NCBI GenBank assembly: GCA_964473825.1
Contig: CAYYQL010000003.1
Location: 76,992 to 140,991, forward strand
From: an uncultured archaeon
GTDB taxonomy: Archaea > Asgardarchaeota > Thorarchaeia > Thorarchaeales > Thorarchaeaceae
Length of the DNA stretch: 64,000 bases
Reading direction: 5' to 3'
Made by a program: the position numbers and the translations under genes. The notes below the pieces were generated by a model. The model saw only the letters and a list, made by a program, of their open reading frames with translations. It was not told the DNA's origin and made no database searches. The first letter of the stretch is position 1. Every line of letters starts with the position of its first letter. Positions 43,882 to 61,747 of the stretch are shown one piece after another.

Positions 43882-44448
43882 TTGTTGAGTGATAGCAGAG
43901 TCAGGATGTTACTGGAACTGCGGAGGGAGCTTGAGGACGAGCTTGAGAAGCTAAAGGAGAGAATCCAGCAACTCGAGAGTTACACCAAAGCACTTGACGC
44001 CACAATTGGAGCGAGTAGTTTCTCAACAGCACAGGCTGCGTTGGCAGCTGAAGAACCTGAGCAGAGGGATATCATGGAGGAGGTTCCGTCCAAGGGGCCC
44101 CGGACTCTAGGGATCAAGCACAAGTCGAAGGACCTAGAACTTGCCACCATGCAGGTCACAGAGGATGAGATAGCAATCACCCCGGCCCCTCACGCATTGT
44201 ATGATATCAAGCGAGGAGCATTCGCCAGATTCTTTGTGGAAAGAATCCTGGGCGGTTTTCAACAGGAGGACAAACATCGTGTGGAAAATGGGGAAATAGA
44301 ATGGGAGGATTCTTTCGATTTTGATATCCAAGCGGAGGACAGCATTCTCCAGGGAATCTTCATCCGCAACTACGGGGGAGAGGAACGACTGGAAGAAATT
44401 CGGAATGCACTAAGATGGGCACTTGAAAAGACATATCGTCCACGCTAG
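43882..44448 (+). CDS. hypothetical protein (N-terminal coiled coil)
   Basis: 188-aa ORF. Confidence 0.35.
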   Translation: MLSDSRVRMLLELRRELEDELEKLKERIQQLESYTKALDATIGASSFSTAQAALAAEEPEQRDIMEEVPSKGPRTLGIKHKSKDLELATMQVTEDEIAITPAPHALYDIKRGAFARFFVERILGGFQQEDKHRVENGEIEWEDSFDFDIQAEDSILQGIFIRNYGGEERLEEIRNALRWALEKTYRPR

Positions 44449-44561: not shown

Positions 44562-45188
44562 GTGCATTACGATGACGAGGCGCATCCCGGATTCAACCCC
44601 CACGACGTGGTTAATATCGTACGAGATGCGCACGAGTATTTCAAGGAGAGTAATGTCGATGAACGATATGAGGCAGTGGCCTTAGATCTCATCCGGAGGT
44701 ATGTGTCAACAGAGGGAAGGCCACGGGAACTTGAACCACTCTATGCAGCCTCTCTTTACTTGGTGACTCGACATCCCTGGAGCCACCCCAACCCCCTCAC
44801 AAGAACCGAGTTCGCCAGTAAACTCCGGATCAAAGAGTCGAGTTTAGAGTGGTATACTGAGTCTATCATTGAGAAGCTTGGATTCGAGGTCTTTCATGAC
44901 CATGGCCAGCTACCTTTCTACATAGACCCAAGAGGAACTATCTCGAGTGTCATTAACTCCGTGGTAAGGACGAGTGTAAGCGAAGAAGTGGTCTTGGGTA
45001 TTGTGAGAGGGGGGGCTGTGGCACCAAGTGCGCTCGCAGAAAGAATAGTGGAACGCCTCTGCAGAATCGTGAAGATTCTTCCAAATGCCTTCGAGAGAGA
45101 TTTGTTCACAATAGTAGAGAAGAAGATAGAAGAACAGAGTGGGCGACTACTTGCTGAGCTAAAGCAAGGTGCAGCAATGGGACTCTAG
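44562..45188 (+). CDS. hypothetical protein, possible single cyclin-like/TFB-core-like fold
   Basis: ..LYAASLYLVTR..PLTRTEFASKLRIKESSLEWYTESIIEKLGF resembles a TFB cyclin repeat. The resemblance is weak. Confidence 0.3.
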   Translation: MHYDDEAHPGFNPHDVVNIVRDAHEYFKESNVDERYEAVALDLIRRYVSTEGRPRELEPLYAASLYLVTRHPWSHPNPLTRTEFASKLRIKESSLEWYTESIIEKLGFEVFHDHGQLPFYIDPRGTISSVINSVVRTSVSEEVVLGIVRGGAVAPSALAERIVERLCRIVKILPNAFERDLFTIVEKKIEEQSGRLLAELKQGAAMGL

Positions 45189-45284
45189 CTAATCCGAGTG
45201 GTCAACACCGCGTGGACTCAACAGTCAGACCGTAACTCAGACGGAATATTTGGCATCGGATTCGGTGTCTGGTTCTAAGAGGAA

Positions 45285-45476
45285 TCGTTCATTGTATGTT
45301 GGACAGACTTAGACACCGGAGAGATGTTCCCCCGGGTAACGGCGTTGGGTGTTTTCCGTCGTGGTCAGCGATGCTGTGTGAGTGACCAGCTCTCAATCAT
45401 GGGCTGGAGGATATAGACTCCTATGCTGAGATGTCCAACTTTGTCCAAGTTTTCTGTAGCTGTTGGTGTACCCTAT
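45285..45476. repeat. intergenic repeated element, copy B (~190 bp)
   Basis: Direct repeat of 42525-42717. Confidence 0.8.
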
Positions 45477-45510
45477 ATGTAAGATTCTTGCCTTCTGGAT
45501 GTGGCAATTG

Positions 45511-45526
45511 GTAATGTTTAAATGTG
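45511..45526 (+). promoter_or_regulatory. candidate BRE/TATA (AATGTTTAAATG) for the uL22-led ribosomal operon
   Basis: TTTAAAT box about 215 nt upstream of the uL22 ATG, at the head of a 546-nt intergenic region. Confidence 0.4.
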
Positions 45527-45735
45527 AACTATTTTGGCATCTGAGTGTCGCTCTCTGATAGTGACTGTTCGGAACGGAAGGAAGCAGTGCAGGTTCTTGA
45601 TTCTGCTCGCGGAAGTGGCCTGTATACGTGTGCCGGAGGTTCTGGGTAGCCATTGAGGGTGCCATGATGAGGAGACTACCTACCAATAGCGGAAGGTGAG
45701 CTTTTCATAGGTCACAAGACCAGAAGTGAGGTACC

Positions 45736-46200
45736 ATGCCGTCGTACAGATACAGCATAATTGGCATTGACCCGGACAGGACTGCCATAGCCAGCGGAAG
45801 AAACATGCGATGTTCGCCAAAACATGCGAGAGAAGTGTGTGAGGCCATTCGTGGCATGATGCTCGATAAGGCGATTGAGTTGCTTGAGGAAGTCATTGAG
45901 GAGAAGGCATGGATTCCGTACAAGCGCCACAAGAAGAAGAGAGCGCATCATTCTGGCATGAAGAAATGGCATACTGGTGGCCATCCAGTGAAGGCATCCC
46001 AGAGAATTCTGAGAGTGCTGAGAAATGCAGAGGCCAACGCAGACAACAAGGGTCTAGACATTGATCGTCTGAGAATTATGCATGCCGCAGCTCACAGAGG
46101 CAGGACATACAAGAAGTATATCGAACGCGCCTTTGGGCGGAGTACCCCCTATAACGAGAATACAACACATGTGGAGATTGTTCTAGAAGAGGTGTCATAG
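45736..46200 (+). CDS. rpl22: 50S ribosomal protein uL22
   Basis: Archaeal L22 sequence and position directly before S3. Confidence 0.9.
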   Translation: MPSYRYSIIGIDPDRTAIASGRNMRCSPKHAREVCEAIRGMMLDKAIELLEEVIEEKAWIPYKRHKKKRAHHSGMKKWHTGGHPVKASQRILRVLRNAEANADNKGLDIDRLRIMHAAAHRGRTYKKYIERAFGRSTPYNENTTHVEIVLEEVS

Positions 46201-47112: not shown

Positions 47113-47324
47113 TGGCTCGGTTGACTCCGCGAGACATCCGCAATTTGACTCCAGAAGAGAGATCCAAGCGCTTAGAGGATCTCTACAACGAACTATCCAC
47201 CATTAGGATAGAACTGGCAACAGGAGGCGGCAGTGAGAATCCATATAGAATTCGAGCCATACGGCGAGCCATTGCACGAATTCTTACGATTCAGAGAGAA
47301 GTGGAACTGGAGGGCGAAAGATGA
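47112..47324 (+). CDS. rpl29: 50S ribosomal protein uL29
   Basis: 70 aa, helical; sits in the S3-L29-S17 position. Confidence 0.85.
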   Translation: MARLTPRDIRNLTPEERSKRLEDLYNELSTIRIELATGGGSENPYRIRAIRRAIARILTIQREVELEGER

Positions 47325-47602
47325 TCACACCTGAGAGTCTTGTTCAGCATGAACTTGTCGGACTTCATCTGCATATAGTGGAGTCAACTGACCCCACTTG
47401 CATTTGTCGTGCAGGCACAGTCGTAAATGAGTCAAGGAATATGCTGTACATTCGCACACCGGAGAACCTGATTCGAGTTGCAAAGAATCAGAGCGTATTC
47501 GAAATCGAGTTACCCAATAAGAAAATTGTGAGGGTTGATGGACGACTGCTTGAAGGCCGTCCAGAGCAACGTCTGAAGAAACCCCTCGATAGGAGATGGT
47601 AA
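47321..47602 (+). CDS. rnp1: ribonuclease P protein component 1 (Rpp29/Pop4)
   Basis: 93 aa; ..LVGLHLHIVESTDP..GTVVNESRNMLYI.. Sm-like fold. The position between L29 and S17 is typical. Confidence 0.75.
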   Translation: MITPESLVQHELVGLHLHIVESTDPTCICRAGTVVNESRNMLYIRTPENLIRVAKNQSVFEIELPNKKIVRVDGRLLEGRPEQRLKKPLDRRW

Positions 47603-51313: not shown

Positions 51314-52282
51314 ATGTCGAAGAAATCGAAGAAAACAGCGGCAGGAAATTCACTTGACATTCCACTTGAGGAACTACCGGGAGTAGGTGACAAGACTCGC
51401 CAAGAGCTCGTCAAAGCCGGCTACAAATCTGTTCGTGCAATAGCAGAAGCTGATCCCTCTAAGCTGGCTGAGAAGGTAGACGGAGTGGGCGATGTCACAG
51501 CCCAAAAGATGATTGATGCAGCCATGGAGCTAGTCAAAGATGCGTCACTTCAGGAACTACCGGGAGTGGGTGACAAGACTCGCCAAGGGCTCGTCAAGGC
51601 TGGTTATAAGCTTCTAAGCAAGATTGCAGAAACTGATCCGTCCGAACTGGCCGAGAAGGTAGATGGAGTCGGCGAGGCCACAGCCAAGAAGATTGTGAAG
51701 GCAGCAAAGAAGATGTCTAAGGCGCCTGCTGTGGAGAAGACGCCCGAGAAAGAAGCGGAAGAGAAACCGGCGCCAAAGAAGCCTGCCAAGAAGGCAAAAC
51801 CGGCCAAGAAAACGCCTAAACCAAAACCATCTGAACAGCGAGTCGACTCTCGTCTTGTTAGACTTGCTCGTGAGAAGAGACGCCGAAAACCTGCTTTCAG
51901 AAATGTACAATCACACAGATGGAAGCGTGTTAAGGACTCGTGGAGGAAGGTGCGGGGCATCGATAGTGCGGTACGTGAGAAGAAGAAAGGCAGACCTGCA
52001 ATGGTCAATGCTGGTTACCGTACCCCTAAGGCTGTCAGAGGCTTGCATCCGTCGAACTTGGAAGAAGTACTGGTCTATCGCCCTGCGGATTTGGACGGCC
52101 TCGACCCTGATATCCATGCAGTTCGCATCGGCGGAACCGTGGGGATGCGGAAGAAACAGGCCATAATCAAGAAAGCTGACACAATGATGCTTAGAGTACT
52201 CAATCCAGGTGCACCAGAAGATCTCATGGAAGAGGACCTCTTCACTGAGCTCGATGTCATGGATGAACTGGAGGTTGACTAG
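51314..52282 (+). CDS. rpl32e: 50S ribosomal protein eL32 with an N-terminal tandem helix-hairpin-helix extension and a lysine-rich linker
   Basis: The C-terminal core ..RWKRVKDSWRKVRGIDS..GYRTPKAVRGLHPS.. is L32e. The N-terminus carries two ~60-aa LxELPGVGDKTRQxLVKAGYK repeats. Confidence 0.85.
   Translation: MSKKSKKTAAGNSLDIPLEELPGVGDKTRQELVKAGYKSVRAIAEADPSKLAEKVDGVGDVTAQKMIDAAMELVKDASLQELPGVGDKTRQGLVKAGYKLLSKIAETDPSELAEKVDGVGEATAKKIVKAAKKMSKAPAVEKTPEKEAEEKPAPKKPAKKAKPAKKTPKPKPSEQRVDSRLVRLAREKRRRKPAFRNVQSHRWKRVKDSWRKVRGIDSAVREKKKGRPAMVNAGYRTPKAVRGLHPSNLEEVLVYRPADLDGLDPDIHAVRIGGTVGMRKKQAIIKKADTMMLRVLNPGAPEDLMEEDLFTELDVMDELEVD
51366..51729 (+). repeat. 182-nt tandem duplication inside the eL32 N-terminal extension (two HhH modules)
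   Basis: cttgaggaactaccgggagtaggtgacaagactcgccaag... recurs at 51548 with about 80% nucleotide identity. Confidence 0.7.
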
Positions 52283-52283
52283 A

Positions 52284-52730
52284 ATGAATCTTACTGCTCA
52301 GAAACGATTGGCTGCTGAAGTGCTGAAAGTTGGCATATCCCGAGTATGGATTGATCCTGACTTTCAAGATGAAGCCTCTCTGGCAATAACTAAGGATGAT
52401 ATTCGCAGACTTATTGACGAAGGGGCAATTCAGAAGAAACAGAAGCGCGGGGTGAGCCGCGGCAGAGCAAGACACGCTATCGAACAGCGCCGAAAAGGCC
52501 GGAGAAGCGGTCCTGGGCGAAAGAAGGGTCATGCAACATCAAAGCTGTCTGGTAAGGATCGTTGGATGCGGAAGATACGACCAATCCGACGTGAATTGAA
52601 GAAGCTTCGAGATGAAGGAACAATATCGCCCGGCGTCTATCGTGATTTGTATATGAAAGCAAAGGGCAATGTCTTCAGAAGCACTGCTCACCTGAGGACG
52701 TACATATCAGAGCGAAATCTGGAGGAATGA
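52284..52730 (+). CDS. rpl19e: 50S ribosomal protein eL19
   Basis: [25 protein letters not shown].. N-terminus. The internal ATG was taken as start. Confidence 0.9.
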
Positions 52731-53497
52731 AGATAGTGGCACACGGTCCCACATACAGGGTCAAGTTTAGAAGACGGCGAGAGGGTAAGACTAACTACTA
52801 TCGTCGTCGCAGACTGTTATTATCCAGAAAGCCCCGTCTTGTGGTTCGAAAGACCAATAACGCAACCATTGTACAGTTTGTTGTCGCGAAGGCAATCGGT
52901 GATGAGACTATAGCTACAGCTGTATCAGACGAGCTCACTGATCATGGCTGGGTGGCGGGAACGGCAAATATGCCTGCTGCCTATCTCACTGGTCTACTAG
53001 CCGGACGACGTGCAAAGAGCCGTGGTATTGATGAAGCCATACTAGATGTTGGACTTCACCCTCCAATCCGTGGTTCGAAGATATATGCCGCCCTCAATGG
53101 TGTTCTCGACGCCGACGTTCCTGTAGCACACGATCCAGAGGTTCTTCCATCAGAAGAAAGGATTCGAGGTGAGCATATCGTCGAAGCCTTTGAGCACTTC
53201 TCTGATGAGTCTGAGAATCCAGTTTTCAATAATGTTGGTTCACGCAAGACGAACATAACAACCATTCCAAAGAAGTTTGATGCTGTTCGGGATGCGATAC
53301 TAAATATCCCCGCATCAGAACTGAAGAAAAAGAAGAAGAAGACCCCGAAAGAAACGAAGCCTTCAAAGCCCAAAGGGGAGAAGAAACCCAAGAAGGAAAA
53401 GAAGGCAAAGGCTCCGCGAGCCAAGCCCACAGAAGCCAAGCCAAAGAAACTACTATCTCGTGGTAAGAGTAAGAAGGGCAGGAAACGCAAGAAATAG
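52727..53497 (+). CDS. rpl18: 50S ribosomal protein uL18 with a ~60-aa lysine-rich C-terminal tail
   Basis: The L18/L5e core is followed by [28 protein letters not shown]... Confidence 0.85.
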
Positions 53498-53510: not shown

Positions 53511-54182
53511 ATGAGCAGAAAACGTAGACAATCCCGCAGCGACCATGACCCCATCCAAGACTGGGAACCCAAGACCAATTTGGGGATGCTGGTGAAGGAA
53601 GGGCACATCAACAGCATAGAAGATATAATTGAGAACAACTACACAATCCGAGAGTCTGAGATTGTCGATGTGCTGTTTCCTGATCTTCGGCAGGAGGCTG
53701 TGGATGTTACCCTTGTTCAACGACAATCAGATAGTGGTCAACAGAGGAGTTTCAGAATCACCGTTGTTGTTGGTAACGGGGAGGGCATTATTGGTCTAGG
53801 TATGGGTAAGGCTCCCGAGTTTGTGCCCGCAATCCGGGCTGCCGAGACCCGAGCCAAGATGAACATCACCCTCTTTCGTAGAGGCTGTGGCTCTTGGGAA
53901 TGCCGATGTGATGAACCACATAGTGTTCCCTTCGAGGTGGTAGGTCGCTCTGGATCAGTGAAGGTGACTCTCAGACCGGCCCCCAAAGGCACAGGGCTTG
54001 TAACCGCAGATGTTGGGAAGATTGTGCTTCGAATTGCCGGCTTACATGATGTATGGTCCATAACAAAGGGTCGGTCGCGATCCTCCTCGAATTTCGCGAA
54101 GGCTTTCGTTGACGCCTTGACCAAGACATACCGCGTGTTGCCCCCTCAAGAATGGGCTATTACAGGAGCGTATGATCAATGA
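53511..54182 (+). CDS. rps5: 30S ribosomal protein uS5
   Basis: dsRBD-like N-domain plus the S5 C-domain (..VVVGNGEGIIGLGMGKA..). Confidence 0.9.
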   Translation: MSRKRRQSRSDHDPIQDWEPKTNLGMLVKEGHINSIEDIIENNYTIRESEIVDVLFPDLRQEAVDVTLVQRQSDSGQQRSFRITVVVGNGEGIIGLGMGKAPEFVPAIRAAETRAKMNITLFRRGCGSWECRCDEPHSVPFEVVGRSGSVKVTLRPAPKGTGLVTADVGKIVLRIAGLHDVWSITKGRSRSSSNFAKAFVDALTKTYRVLPPQEWAITGAYDQ

Positions 54183-54664
54183 CCGATGAAGACAGTCCAG
54201 TTGTTCTGGCCATTCGGGTTAGAGGTCAGGTGCGAGTTCGTCCTCAAATCAAGTATACCTTGGATAAACTCAAGCTTGGCAGGTTACATCATGCCAGGAT
54301 ACTGAAAATGACTCCGAGTGTCCGCGGAATGATCACCAAAGCAAAGGACTATCTAACATGGGGCGAAGTTGACGAAGCAACAGTAGTCAAACTGCTAGAG
54401 AAACGAGGTAGGCTCTCAGGTAACCGTCGACTTACTGACGGATACGTTAAGGAGCACTCTAACTACAAATCAATCAAGGCCTTTGCAAAGGCGATTGCAG
54501 CTGGAGAGGCAGATCTGTATGCAGTTGATGGCGTTAAGCCGATTTTTAGGCTGACTCCCCCCTCTGGAGGATATGACGGCAAGACTGCTCTGTCTTTTGA
54601 GGTGGGCGGCGCGACTGGCTATCGCGGAGAAGCCATAAGCGAATTGGCTATGAAGATGATATAG
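54179..54664 (+). CDS. rpl30: 50S ribosomal protein uL30
   Basis: ..LAIRVRGQVRVRPQIKYTLDKLKL.. motif. Confidence 0.85.
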   Translation: MTDEDSPVVLAIRVRGQVRVRPQIKYTLDKLKLGRLHHARILKMTPSVRGMITKAKDYLTWGEVDEATVVKLLEKRGRLSGNRRLTDGYVKEHSNYKSIKAFAKAIAAGEADLYAVDGVKPIFRLTPPSGGYDGKTALSFEVGGATGYRGEAISELAMKMI

Positions 54665-54676
54665 AGGTGCAAGACA

Positions 54677-55225
54677 ATGACTTGGCGCGATCCCAATGAT
54701 GACGAACGTGACGACCCTCGGAAGCTGTTCCGAAAGTGGTTTGGTTCCTTCTTCTCAGATGATATGTTCAGGCAGATGGAGGAGATGATGGAACGCATGG
54801 TCAGAAACATGGACCAAGGTCCGATGTTCGACAGGAAAGAGCTCGAGGAGTTCATGCGTTCACCAAACGCTATTAATCCATTTGTAATGGGGTTCTCAGT
54901 GCGGATAGGACCTGATGGAAAACCAGTCGTTCAAAGATTTGGAAACTCTCTTCCCGAGGATGAGCGAGCCGGTCCGCAGGGCACAATAGAACCACTTGTG
55001 GACGTCCTAGAGGAAGATGATGAGGTTGTTGTGGTCGCTGAAGTGCCTGGTGTCGGGAGCGACGAGATCGGCGTCAAGGTCAGGGGTAAGACACTAACAA
55101 TTCATACAGATAACCCTCAGAGACCGTATCACAAAGAGATTCAGTTGCCCGTCGATGTCAAGAAGGGGGACGCAAGTTCTTCCATCCGGAATGGGGTTCT
55201 AGAAGTCCGGCTCAAGAAATCATGA
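54677..55225 (+). CDS. Hsp20/alpha-crystallin family small heat-shock protein
   Basis: Alpha-crystallin domain (..DVLEEDDEVVVVAEVPGV..IRNGVLEVRLKK). It sits between uL30 and uL15 with 12- and 9-nt spacers. Confidence 0.7.
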   Translation: MTWRDPNDDERDDPRKLFRKWFGSFFSDDMFRQMEEMMERMVRNMDQGPMFDRKELEEFMRSPNAINPFVMGFSVRIGPDGKPVVQRFGNSLPEDERAGPQGTIEPLVDVLEEDDEVVVVAEVPGVGSDEIGVKVRGKTLTIHTDNPQRPYHKEIQLPVDVKKGDASSSIRNGVLEVRLKKS

Positions 55226-55234
55226 TCAAAGGAG

Positions 55235-55705
55235 TTGCTGAGGATGACACGAAAGAGAAAATCGAAGAAGATTAACAAGATGCGTGGCCGTAGGGCTGCA
55301 GGTTATGGTTTCAGTGCAGGCCACAGAGCGTCTGGACAAAGGGGCGGCAAGGGCAACGCCGGTACCAAGAAGCATCATTATATCAAGACAGTGACCAAAG
55401 ACCCTCGCTATTTCGGGAAATGGGGTTTCAAACGACCACAGAGAATCGTTGAAGAGACTACAGTCCTCAATATCGGTGAGATTGATGCTATGGCCGATAA
55501 ATACGTCGAGAGAGGTATCGCTGAGAAAAATGGCAAACGTTACATCATTGATGTGTCCAAGATAGGTGTCGAGAAAGTCCTGGGATCGGGACAGGTCACC
55601 AAGAAGATAGACCTAAAGGGTGCAGAGAAACTGAGTACACGAGCGAAGCAGAAGATTCTCGACGTTGGCGGTACAATTGACCTGCTAGAAGAAGAGTCTG
55701 CATGA
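55235..55705 (+). CDS. rpl15: 50S ribosomal protein uL15
   Basis: ..GRRAAGYGFSAGHRASGQRGGKGNAG.. motif. Confidence 0.9.
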   Translation: MLRMTRKRKSKKINKMRGRRAAGYGFSAGHRASGQRGGKGNAGTKKHHYIKTVTKDPRYFGKWGFKRPQRIVEETTVLNIGEIDAMADKYVERGIAEKNGKRYIIDVSKIGVEKVLGSGQVTKKIDLKGAEKLSTRAKQKILDVGGTIDLLEEESA

Positions 55706-55710
55706 ATAGT

Positions 55711-55743
55711 GGAGGGCGTCGCCCCTCTTTCCATTTCTTTTAC
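55711..55743 (+). terminator. GC hairpin (GGAGGGCG-tc-GCCCCTC) followed by a T-rich tract after uL15
   Basis: Perfect 7-8-bp stem immediately 3' of the uL15 stop, then TTTCCATTTCTTTTACTC. Confidence 0.45.
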
Positions 55744-56017
55744 TCTTGATTTCAGATGAGCGATAGGTTATGTTGGAATTGCAGTGATTGGTCATAGACA
55801 GTTTCATACAACTTGGAGACTTACAGACAATAATCCGAGAGAGCTGACAAGACACTTTTCAGCTCAGTACAATAGAATAAGCATTAGCTCAACCTGAAAA
55901 GATGCCCCCTTGGGGATCCACTTCATCGACGTATGCAGCCCCGGTGTCCAGTACTGTGCAACTCGTAATGAATAGAGCTACTCTTCTCTATACAGCCTGC
56001 TTGCTAGCACTGTACTG

Positions 56018-56043
56018 TTATTATAGACCACTAGCTTTAAAGG
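56018..56043 (+). promoter_or_regulatory. AT-rich TATA-like boxes (TTATTATAG / CTTTAAAGG) upstream of secY
   Basis: Located about 95-120 nt upstream of the probable secY start, within a 432-nt noncoding gap. Confidence 0.3.
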
Positions 56044-56137
56044 CATTCATCAGCTCGAAGCCAAAAAGCAACCCTGCAGGAGACTTTGAGGTATGCCATC
56101 GACGTTTCTTCGAATCCTGAGCCCGGCGGTTCGTATA

Positions 56138-58375: not shown

Positions 58376-58933
58376 ATGCAAGACATACTAGTCATTCTGA
58401 GCAATTGGCTCTACGCGACCTTTCATGAGCCTCCGATGTCAGGTTTACTCATCGTGGCCACATCCCTCTTTGTGACAAGTCTCAGTAACTTGGCTATGAA
58501 GCGGTTCTCTGATATGCGCCGTCTGAAGAGATACCAGACAGAAATCAAGCAGTACCAAGAGATGACGAAGAAGGCAGAAGAGACCCAGAATGAGAAACTC
58601 CTCAGGAAAGTCCGGAGACGAAAAGCATACATCGATCGGATTCAGCGTGAGATGCTCGGAGCACGGTGCAAACCCTCCCTGTTTTTCATAGTCCCCTTCA
58701 TGCTAATCTTCTCGCTATTGAGCGGATTCTACACTGACCCCGTCACAGGTGGCTCTGAAGTTGTTGCTGTCATCCCCTTCAATGTTCAGAAGCTTCTCCC
58801 GTTTCTCGATGGATACATCGGGACGGCCGTAGGCGGTGGATTCGGCCTATATTTCTACGCGTTCTACATGCTGGTTGGTTTTGGTCTAGGCCAGATAGTC
58901 CAGCGTGTAATGGGCGTGTCTCTCACAGGTTAG
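58376..58933 (+). CDS. DUF106-family membrane protein (archaeal Oxa1/YidC/EMC3-like insertase)
   Basis: 3-TM plus coiled-coil topology. Its position after adk is conserved in archaea. Confidence 0.65.
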   Translation: MQDILVILSNWLYATFHEPPMSGLLIVATSLFVTSLSNLAMKRFSDMRRLKRYQTEIKQYQEMTKKAEETQNEKLLRKVRRRKAYIDRIQREMLGARCKPSLFFIVPFMLIFSLLSGFYTDPVTGGSEVVAVIPFNVQKLLPFLDGYIGTAVGGGFGLYFYAFYMLVGFGLGQIVQRVMGVSLTG

Positions 58934-61334: not shown

Positions 61335-61747
61335 TCGTTTCTCATGTACTAAAGCGAATATTGATTTACTAGTACGGGGACCAGTACGTGGCCCTGGAGC
61401 GAAAGCGCAACTGACGGTACTCATCATTCTGATGAGAGCTGAGGAAGCTCCCAACTACAGTCGGTGCCGGTCCTGTGCAAGCAGGGAGGTGAGAGCCTCG
61501 CTCTGGGAACAGAAACGACACCTCCAAGCCACAAATGACAATGATGCGGAAGTTGAATCCGTTGAGAAGTGTCTTGGTCCGGTTGAAACGACCCATCACC
61601 GTGTAGCAACTCCAAGAATACATCGTTGACGTGCCGACCCGAGGTGTAGGGTAGGAGGCTTAGTCTGATGTTGCAAGGTTCTCGCGTGGCAACACGCCTG
61701 AACGGAACAGAATTGGGGCTATTCTTCGGACCAGGGCCAATCCCATT

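Follow-up and report, generated by a model that had tools for sequence, protein, structure and literature searches.

Why does a gene for a small heat shock protein (sHSP) sit among ribosomal protein genes, and what could its product be doing there? The question is raised by a 64-kb stretch of DNA from an uncultured archaeon of the Thorarchaeaceae (assembly GCA_964473825.1, contig CAYYQL010000003.1, positions 76,992 to 140,991), here called the window, in which an open reading frame (ORF) referred to as Hsp20 separates uL30 from uL15 toward the end of a packed ribosomal protein array. Analysis of this ORF, of its protein, and of the corresponding loci in related genomes showed that it is a lineage-specific thorarchaeotal ortholog of archaeal Hsp20 (the Sulfolobus Hsp20.1/Saci_0922 family, NF041800). 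The protein lacks the C-terminal tail of its canonical relatives, and the order of the genes around it is the same in every Thorarchaeota-type locus found. Taking the gene context together with what is known of other sHSPs, we consider it probable, though well short of certain, that Hsp20 is a growth-coupled cistron encoding a constitutive holdase that works as small oligomers.

The arrangement itself has been seen before. An earlier note made on this DNA had taken it to be unreported in archaea, but this claim is wrong because Tirumalai, Sivaraman, Kutty, Song, and Fox (Archaea 2023:5512414, PMC10833476) had already described, in 2023, an HSP20-family gene added to the S10-spc cluster. The carriers in that study are the Thorarchaeotes bin8, bin27, FW25, and BC and Odinarchaeote LCB; the gene was assigned to COG0071, and horizontal transfer was suggested. 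Two of these genomes, bin8 (CP070658) and bin27 (CP070761), show the identical uL30-Hsp20-uL15 order, and the HSP20-family insertion in the S10-spc cluster of the window occupies the same position as in these two and in about 70 other Thorarchaeota species. Whereas the published survey covered four Thorarchaeota genomes and Odinarchaeote LCB, the present one covers 73 species representatives and 17 metagenome loci. Its additions appear to be class-wide fixation, absence from the nearest sampled outgroup, spacers with Shine-Dalgarno motifs, loss of the tail, and acidification, as well as a match between Hsp20 and its neighbors in selection and codon usage. Since the arrangement as such had been published, the value of the analysis lies in these refinements and not in discovery.

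The protein and its missing C-terminal tail

Hsp20 matched Pfam PF00011 (HSP20) at 37.5 bits (cutoff, 20.8) over residues 110 to 181 and NCBIfam NF041800 (archaeal heat shock protein Hsp20) at 148.6 bits (cutoff, 140) over residues 28 to 181. The earlier note had placed an sHSP gene between uL30 and uL15 on one strand and had named, beforehand, failure in an alpha-crystallin domain (ACD) profile search as grounds for giving the idea up. The Pfam and NCBIfam matches of the gene and its neighbors bear this placement out, and the ORF scores above the cutoffs of both family profiles. A sequence-profile search of the PDB matched 4RZK with an E value of 7.7e-24. The same structure, the ACD of S. solfataricus Hsp20.1, was the top Foldseek match of the modeled ACD (51% identity, root mean square deviation of 1.2 Å, TM score of 0.84), and many further sHSP structures were matched at a probability of 1.0. 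In the AlphaFold2 (AF2) model, the predicted local distance difference test score (pLDDT) is ~85 for the ACD and <55 for the N-terminal half, and the ACD is predicted to fold into the immunoglobulin-like alpha-crystallin beta-sandwich of sHSPs.

The thorarchaeotal protein and canonical archaeal Hsp20 are colinear end to end, with an acidic tip, helices, a hairpin, a variable linker, and a short ACD. First, an N-terminal arm of the kind found in sHSPs precedes the ACD; it is 104 residues long, with predicted helices and low pLDDT. The Met/Phe-rich part of it (residues 1 to 62) is the presumed client-binding arm, and the whole protein contains 10 Met and 10 Phe residues. Identity in this N-terminal region is 45 to 49% across Thorarchaeota, and W3, R19, W21, F25, F31, E36, and M38 are invariant in a 14-sequence alignment. 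Judged by these alignments, the region is conserved within Thorarchaeota to a degree that is unusual for an sHSP. Second, the hairpin of the NF041800 family, P[FY][FV][YFM]GFSxxxGP[DE]GKPxxxxFGN, is found at residues 67 to 90, and it is common to the Hsp20 homologs of Desulfurococcales, Nitrosomirales, and Thermoplasmata. Third, among the residues lining the beta4/beta8 groove of the ACD, Y151, L157, and P158 are invariant and K153 is nearly invariant.

It is at the C terminus, on which the earlier note is silent, that the two groups part. All 120 Thorarchaeota-type proteins stop 5 or 6 residues past NGVLE[VI], as ...RLKK[A/S..], and the protein encoded in the window has 5 residues after NGVLEV and then ends. 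Canonical tails, for their part, run for 15 to 20 residues and terminate in [IV]x[IV] (IEIE, IKVE, and VTVE are examples); one such tail reads ...KKKEEGEFIEIK. The frequency of the I-x-I tail is 0 out of 120 for the Thorarchaeota type compared to 111 out of 111 for the canonical sequences that could be scored. The NF041800 match likewise covers profile positions 5 to 149 of 162, and the last 13 positions, corresponding to the tail, are without a counterpart. Neither the C-terminal I/V-x-I/V extension by which sHSPs dock into the beta4-beta8 groove of a neighboring dimer nor the charged C-terminal linker ending in I-x-I/V that marks the NF041800 family is present, and we would class the thorarchaeotal protein as a tail-less subfamily and not as a functional equivalog of NF041800. 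It is also modestly more acidic, with a median isoelectric point (pI) of 4.8 and a net charge of -11 compared to 5.6 and -3, respectively, for the canonical proteins. Two entries of the 50%-identity library (P0300 and P0317) have an unrelated N-terminal sequence joined to a Thorarchaeota-like Hsp20 ACD (69 to 71% identical). These are most likely chimeric assemblies or miscalled genes, not genuine domain fusions.

Sulfolobales Hsp20 (4RZK; Saci_0922; NF041800) shares with the thorarchaeotal protein the Met-rich N-terminal helices, the PFVYGFSxxxGPDGKPxxxFGN hairpin, and the short ACD. It differs in having a C-terminal extension, in being less acidic, and in the location of its gene, which stands alone or in a heat shock cluster, whereas the thorarchaeotal gene is inside a ribosomal protein operon. 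The I-x-I motif tethers sHSP dimers into large oligomers. In Sulfolobus, Hsp20 assembles into 24-mers, and the dimers that these release are active; it is the dimer that is considered the working form of Sulfolobus sHSPs (PMC9133787). By analogy, the thorarchaeotal protein is predicted not to form 24-mer cages of this type. M. jannaschii Hsp16.5 (1SHS) and S. tokodaii StHsp14.0 (3AAB/3VQK) have the ACD beta-sandwich in common with it (Foldseek probability of 1.0, 28 to 33% identity), but the thorarchaeotal or Hsp20.1-type ACD is ~10 to 14 residues shorter in the beta5-beta7 loop, as seen from gaps in the PDB-profile alignment, and the I-x-I tail with which these two proteins build cages is absent. 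The beta5-beta7 loop is the beta6 region used by Hsp16.5 and StHsp14.0 for strand-swapped dimerization. Being tail-less, the protein lends itself readily to a biochemical comparison with Sulfolobus Hsp20.

Distribution, selection, and origin

A search of a 5.8-billion-protein collection, of which the best 120 matches were listed, found Hsp20 homologs in at least 120 clusters, full length and at 52 to 95% identity, and all named homologs among the 120 listed were from Candidatus Thorarchaeota or unclassified Asgard archaea. Three independent contexts from metagenome-assembled genomes (MAGs) had the order uL30-Hsp20-uL15-secY. In a synteny scan of one genome per GTDB species, seeded on Hsp20, the order uS5-uL30-Hsp20-uL15 on one strand was found in 73 of 73 Thorarchaeota-type loci, including the closed chromosomes of bin8 and bin27. 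To avoid starting from Hsp20 itself, JGI metagenomes were then scanned with uL15 as the seed. Here Hsp20 was directly 5′ of uL15 in 17 of 17 Thorarchaeota-like loci, whereas uL30 abutted uL15 in five of five more distant archaeal loci. One of these five (L110) encodes a uS5 that is 64% and a SecY that is 61% identical to those of the window. The comparison of the uL30-uL15 junction in relatives, which the earlier note had recommended, shows that, with 73 plus 17 Thorarchaeota loci on one side and the five distant loci on the other, uL30-Hsp20-uL15 is a fixed thorarchaeotal trait that is absent from the nearest sampled outgroup, and the block shows no break or loss across the 90 Thorarchaeota-type loci. 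From this pattern of gene order, the gene was probably fixed in its slot, between uL30 and uL15 and close to the 3′ end of the S10-spc operon, in the common ancestor of the Thorarchaeota. This is a rare case of a chaperone gene stably inserted in one of the most conserved operons of biology; it defines a whole Asgard class, and the junction provides a clean synapomorphy and metagenome marker for Thorarchaeota.

At the level of individual genomes, Hsp20 of locus L009 is 96% identical to that of the window and the flanking genes are 93 to 99% identical. By these values, the two belong to essentially the same species. The flanking genes are also 83 to 95% identical to those of the Thorarchaeota MAG TEKIR_12S.

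Hsp20 is under purifying selection. Its ratio of nonsynonymous to synonymous substitution rates (dN/dS) is 0.063 compared to L008 and 0.103 compared to L009, and the flanking genes have ratios of 0.03 to 0.14. Because there are at least 120 clusters of full-length orthologs and dN/dS is 0.06 to 0.10, it is a genuine gene, well beyond chance. Across ~70 Thorarchaeota species, the median identity to the window is 57% for Hsp20 compared to 60 to 63% for uL18, uL30, and uL15. Within Hsp20, the median identities are 69% for the ACD and 66% for the N-terminal hairpin. The GC content, GC content at third codon positions (GC3), and codon usage of Hsp20 are indistinguishable from those of the neighboring genes.

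When 1.84 billion 50%-identity representatives were searched exhaustively with HMMER, the thorarchaeotal family was a single cluster (391 bits), and the match that followed it scored 130 bits at 46% identity. A neighbor-joining tree (no bootstrap) placed the Thorarchaeota-type proteins in a monophyletic group with a Thermoplasmata-like sister group. The canonical family comprises >5,000 clusters, and the named members among the matches listed are mostly from the TACK lineages Nitrososphaerales, Desulfurococcales, and Bathyarchaeia. The nearest canonical relatives, which are sister sequences in the tree, are housed in heat shock clusters of the order Hsp20-HTH-Hsp20-GrpE-DnaK-DnaJ, where HTH stands for a helix-turn-helix protein. 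At L088 (851 to 6159) and L089 (2794 to 5098), a duplicated sHSP pair flanks a putative heat shock HTH regulator; the L089 contig stops after GrpE. A recent horizontal transfer of Hsp20 was also considered and is ruled out by the neighbor-like GC, GC3, and codon usage and by the class-wide presence of the gene. Either ancient transfer into the thorarchaeotal stem or vertical descent followed by relocation would fit these data. Nothing usable was found in the literature on Thorarchaeota transcriptomes mentioning heat shock genes or on sHSP counts in Asgard genomes.

Probable co-transcription and proposed role of Hsp20

The uL30 stop codon (TAG, 54662 to 54664) and the ATG of Hsp20 are separated by 12 nt, exactly as had been reported at the outset. 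The second spacer needs correction. The 9 nt given for it in the earlier note depends on a TTG at 55235 as the start of uL15, and this triplet reads TAG in the 96% identical relative (L009). The start is therefore the conserved ATG at 55244, and the Hsp20-uL15 spacer is 18 nt. In ~50 distinct Thorarchaeota loci, the uL30-Hsp20 spacer is 9 to 22 nt, most often 10, and in nearly all of them it contains GAGGTG or GGTG, often as a TGA-GGTG that overlaps the uL30 stop codon. The spacer between Hsp20 and uL15 measures 11 to 19 nt in most cases, with 16 being the commonest length, and GGAG is found in most loci. Runs of at least five T residues were absent from both spacers in all 49 loci tested, and a bacterial-type promoter and terminator scan of the spacers showed nothing beyond the shuffled expectation. 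In a crude test, sequences resembling the TATA consensus of archaea were sought in the 60 nt preceding Hsp20 and uL15, and the best matches were no better than those in coding-sequence controls. The first terminator-like signal in the window is a GC hairpin (55711 to 55728) with a T-rich tract, just 3′ of uL15.

Beyond this point the cluster continues, across a gap, with secY on the same strand. The last ~75 nt of the 387-nt uL15-secY spacer (55706 to 56092), including the CTTTAAAGG box, are almost identical in the window, L009, and L008, whereas the central part has diverged or been lost in L009 and L008, the Hsp20 proteins of which are 96% and 83% identical, respectively, to that of the window. 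This points to a promoter and a leader belonging to secY alone. Rfam gave no match in the uL15-secY gap. Across Thorarchaeota, the gap ranges from ~60 to >2,000 nt, and secY is inverted once; the link between uL15 and secY has been broken or expanded several times. The inversion is at L042 (6242 to 4743), and gaps of ~0.6 to 2.2 kb are found at L027, L030, and L077.

Co-transcription of Hsp20 with the ribosomal protein genes, which the earlier note had held to be almost certain, is well supported as far as sequence allows, because the spacers are short and carry Shine-Dalgarno motifs, T-runs and TATA enrichment are absent, and the codon usage and dN/dS are like those of the neighbors. A promoter and terminator pair that would isolate the gene from its neighbors was looked for around Hsp20, and none was found; the only terminator-like hairpin comes after uL15. 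The genes from uL22 to uL15, Hsp20 included, would thus form one polycistronic unit. Such a context, a ribosomal protein operon with no promoter signal of its own for Hsp20, argues for growth-coupled rather than stress-inducible expression.

How, then, might the protein act? In the reading we favor, Hsp20 would be transcribed as the penultimate cistron of the uL22 to uL15 mRNA, with a Shine-Dalgarno site of its own for translation, and its output would track ribosome synthesis and not a heat shock regulon. Without the I-x-I tail, which in other sHSPs is the tether of 12- or 24-mer storage cages, it probably exists as dimers or small oligomers, in which the beta4-beta8 groove would be unoccupied. 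It would then be a constitutive, ATP-independent holdase, as argued from the behavior of related proteins, and its acidic surface would suit clients that are basic and prone to aggregation, for example, freshly synthesized ribosomal proteins or nascent chains. The loss of the I-x-I tail and the greater acidity suggest a constitutively active small-oligomer holdase that is made in step with ribosomes. If it is indeed made with ribosomes and constitutively active, it would exemplify the conversion of an sHSP, a storage cage triggered by stress, to a holdase with a housekeeping role, and it may even serve ribosome biogenesis.

Several points weigh against this picture. First, the oligomeric state and the chaperone activity are argued from other sHSPs. 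Second, loss of the tail by itself is not tied to the operon location, because tail-less variants are also known from nonribosomal contexts in DPANN and other lineages: there are 24 tail-less Hsp20 representatives among the 50%-identity clusters, including Micrarchaeota and Altiarchaeales, and none of the three contexts of other tail-less Hsp20s that were inspected was ribosomal. Third, the difference in acidity from canonical proteins is small, and the AF2 model of the N-terminal half is of low confidence. Fourth, the promoter rules of Asgard archaea are poorly known, which limits what the TATA comparison can say, and a promoter may be buried inside the uL30 coding sequence. Finally, a search with the profile of the archaeal Hsp20 family found no second member within the 64-kb window, and this is a statement about the window only.

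A buried promoter is the core of one alternative, namely, that Hsp20 is an ordinary stress sHSP gene that entered the operon fortuitously, stays because it is difficult to excise, and owes its biologically relevant expression to a stress-responsive promoter in the 3′-terminal part of uL30. Archaeal operons often contain internal promoters, and the family is a classical heat shock family with relatives in GrpE-DnaK-DnaJ clusters that include an HTH regulator. The horizontal acquisition proposed by Tirumalai et al. (PMC10833476) would fit as well. However, TATA-like motifs are not enriched upstream of the gene compared to controls, no regulator gene is nearby, and the composition bears no foreign trace. 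The conserved spacers and Shine-Dalgarno motifs, with 0 losses in 90 Thorarchaeota-type loci, and a protein remodeled by tail loss and acidification relative to its stress-type relatives also speak against a passive passenger. We regard this alternative as unlikely.

Another alternative goes further than general holdase activity and makes Hsp20 a dedicated ribosome-linked factor, that is, either a chaperone specific for a single free ribosomal protein or a small number of them or a protein that takes part in ribosome assembly or associates with ribosomes. It would be a functional analog of the dedicated ribosomal protein chaperones of eukaryotes, and its vacant beta4-beta8 groove would bind an I-x-L- or I-x-I-like peptide of a partner. 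The strict class-wide synteny beside uL30 and uL15, an evolutionary rate that resembles that of the flanking ribosomal proteins, the unusual conservation of the N-terminal region, and the greater acidity of the protein relative to canonical Hsp20 are all consistent with such a role, as is the retention of the groove residues Y151, L157, P158, and K153 in a protein whose own I-x-I tail is gone. A candidate partner peptide can even be found next door, since the C terminus of thorarchaeotal uL15, GG[TS][IVL]D[LIV]P.E, is of the I-x-L type. However, a GGxIxL C terminus is, to our knowledge, generic to uL15 of all domains; it is therefore not a Thorarchaeota-specific coadaptation and carries little weight. 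The N-terminal hairpin and helices are common to canonical, nonribosomal Hsp20s, too. The case is one of adjacency, and secY, adenylate kinase (adk), Rpp29, and SUI1/aIF1 ride in archaeal ribosomal protein operons without ribosome binding. Like Hsp20, these passengers are nonribosomal genes that are stably embedded and presumably co-transcribed, but they are conserved across most archaea, whereas the Hsp20 slot is specific to one class (and, according to the literature, Odinarchaeote LCB). Three of them are seen in the window, with the gene for the RNase P protein subunit Rpp29 (47321 to 47602, plus strand) between uL29 and uS17 and with secY and adk after uL15. We give the dedicated factor little credence, and still less to the version in which Hsp20 is no general stress chaperone but is co-translated with its clients from one mRNA and, as a dedicated chaperone or a factor bound to ribosomes, serves free ribosomal proteins or the assembly of ribosomes. 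If it were true, the protein would be an archaeal counterpart, in an Asgard lineage, of ribosomal protein chaperones so far known only in eukaryotes.

The chance that the arrangement is an artifact of misassembly, a chimeric contig, or a spurious ORF is practically nil: chimeric assemblies with a thorarchaeotal Hsp20 ACD do exist (P0300 and P0317) and caution on the quality of Asgard MAG assemblies has been voiced (PMC10833476), but this reading is effectively refuted because the same order recurs in ~90 assemblies obtained independently in different studies, two of them closed chromosomes (CP070658 and CP070761), and because the gene is under strong purifying selection.

The array and its surroundings

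The coordinates of Hsp20, its parts, and its immediate surroundings are given in Table 1. The packed array begins with uL22 (45736), uS3, uL29, Rpp29, uS17, uL14, uL24, eS4, uL5, and uS14 and continues with uS8, uL6, eL32, eL19, uL18, uS5, uL30, Hsp20, and uL15 (end at 55705). In this list, uL29 is a gene-sized interval between uS3 and Rpp29 that was assigned by position only.

Table 1. Hsp20 and adjacent features of the window (positions counted from the first nucleotide of the window)
Feature	Coordinates	Strand	Remarks
uS5 gene	53511..54182	+	Pfam Ribosomal_S5 and S5_C; 4-nt overlap with the uL30 start; upstream member of the packed array
uL30 gene	54179..54664	+	NCBIfam NF004711, 177 bits; TIGR01309 uL30_arch, 158 bits; directly 5′ of Hsp20
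Shine-Dalgarno-like GAGGTG	54664..54669	+	Shares the last base of the uL30 stop codon; 7 nt 5′ of the Hsp20 ATG
Hsp20 gene	54677..55225	+	182 aa, 20.9 kDa, pI 4.95, ATG start; tail-less thorarchaeotal member of archaeal Hsp20
N-terminal region	54677..54862	+	aa 1-62; acidic tip, then Met/Phe-rich predicted helices H14-22, H28-45, and H53-61 (AF2, low pLDDT)
Beta-hairpin module	54863..54952	+	aa 63-92; NPFV[FM]GFSxxxGPDGKPxxQRFGN; predicted strands 72-77 and 83-88 (AF2)
Alpha-crystallin domain	54989..55222	+	aa 105-182; ends ...NGVLEVRLKKS; without C-terminal extension or I-x-I
Shine-Dalgarno-like GGAG	55231..55234	+	9 nt 5′ of the uL15 ATG
uL15 gene	55244..55705	+	153 aa from ATG 55244; Pfam Ribosomal_L27A; final gene of the packed array
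Terminator-like element	55711..55752	+	Hairpin GGAGGGCGTCGCCCCTC(T), then T-rich tract; from a consensus scan; conserved in L009
secY leader	56018..56092	+	Conserved; TATA-like box CTTTAAAGG

Upstream, the array starts at uL22 (45736 to 46200) after a gap of 547 nt (45189 to 45735) without a sizable ORF on the plus strand. No uS19 ORF was found 5′ of uL22, though uS19-uL22 has been described as belonging to the conserved core cluster, and the two ORFs that lie upstream of the array (43882 to 44448 and 44562 to 45188) had no Pfam match.

Two of the ribosomal proteins carry extra sequence. The eL32 gene (51314 to 52282, plus strand) encodes a 322-aa fusion in which two N-terminal helix-hairpin-helix repeats (Pfam HHH_5, 92 bits) are followed by a Lys/Pro/Ala-rich linker and Ribosomal_L32e, and Pfam matches showed the same fusion, of 263 to 342 aa, in two other Thorarchaeota genomes (L003, 823 to 1614; L005, 581 to 1609). 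The 256-aa uL18 (52727 to 53497, plus strand) has a Lys-rich, low-complexity C-terminal tail of ~70 aa, and its ORF is intact. At the equivalent position in two NCBI Thorarchaeota MAGs (L001 and L002), no uL18 gene is called, and uL18 is annotated as a pseudogene in bin8 and bin27 (PMC10833476). Because the ORF of the window is intact, these gap and pseudogene calls are probably an annotation problem arising from the Lys-rich tail.

Downstream, an archaeal RNase P RNA (Rfam RF00373, 151.9 bits) was found at 61395 to 61733 on the plus strand, ~6 kb from the cluster. It was the only match in the Rfam scan of the window, and no tRNAs were found. The array itself thus contains the gene of an RNase P protein subunit (Rpp29), with the RNA of the enzyme encoded not far away. 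At L003, a gene for an EMC3/TMCO1-like membrane protein (PF01956; 7593 to 8156) comes right after adenylate kinase, downstream of secY, and a 185-aa ORF takes the same position in the window (58376 to 58933, plus strand). The pairing of the EMC3/TMCO1-like gene with secY is suggestive of a membrane insertion module.

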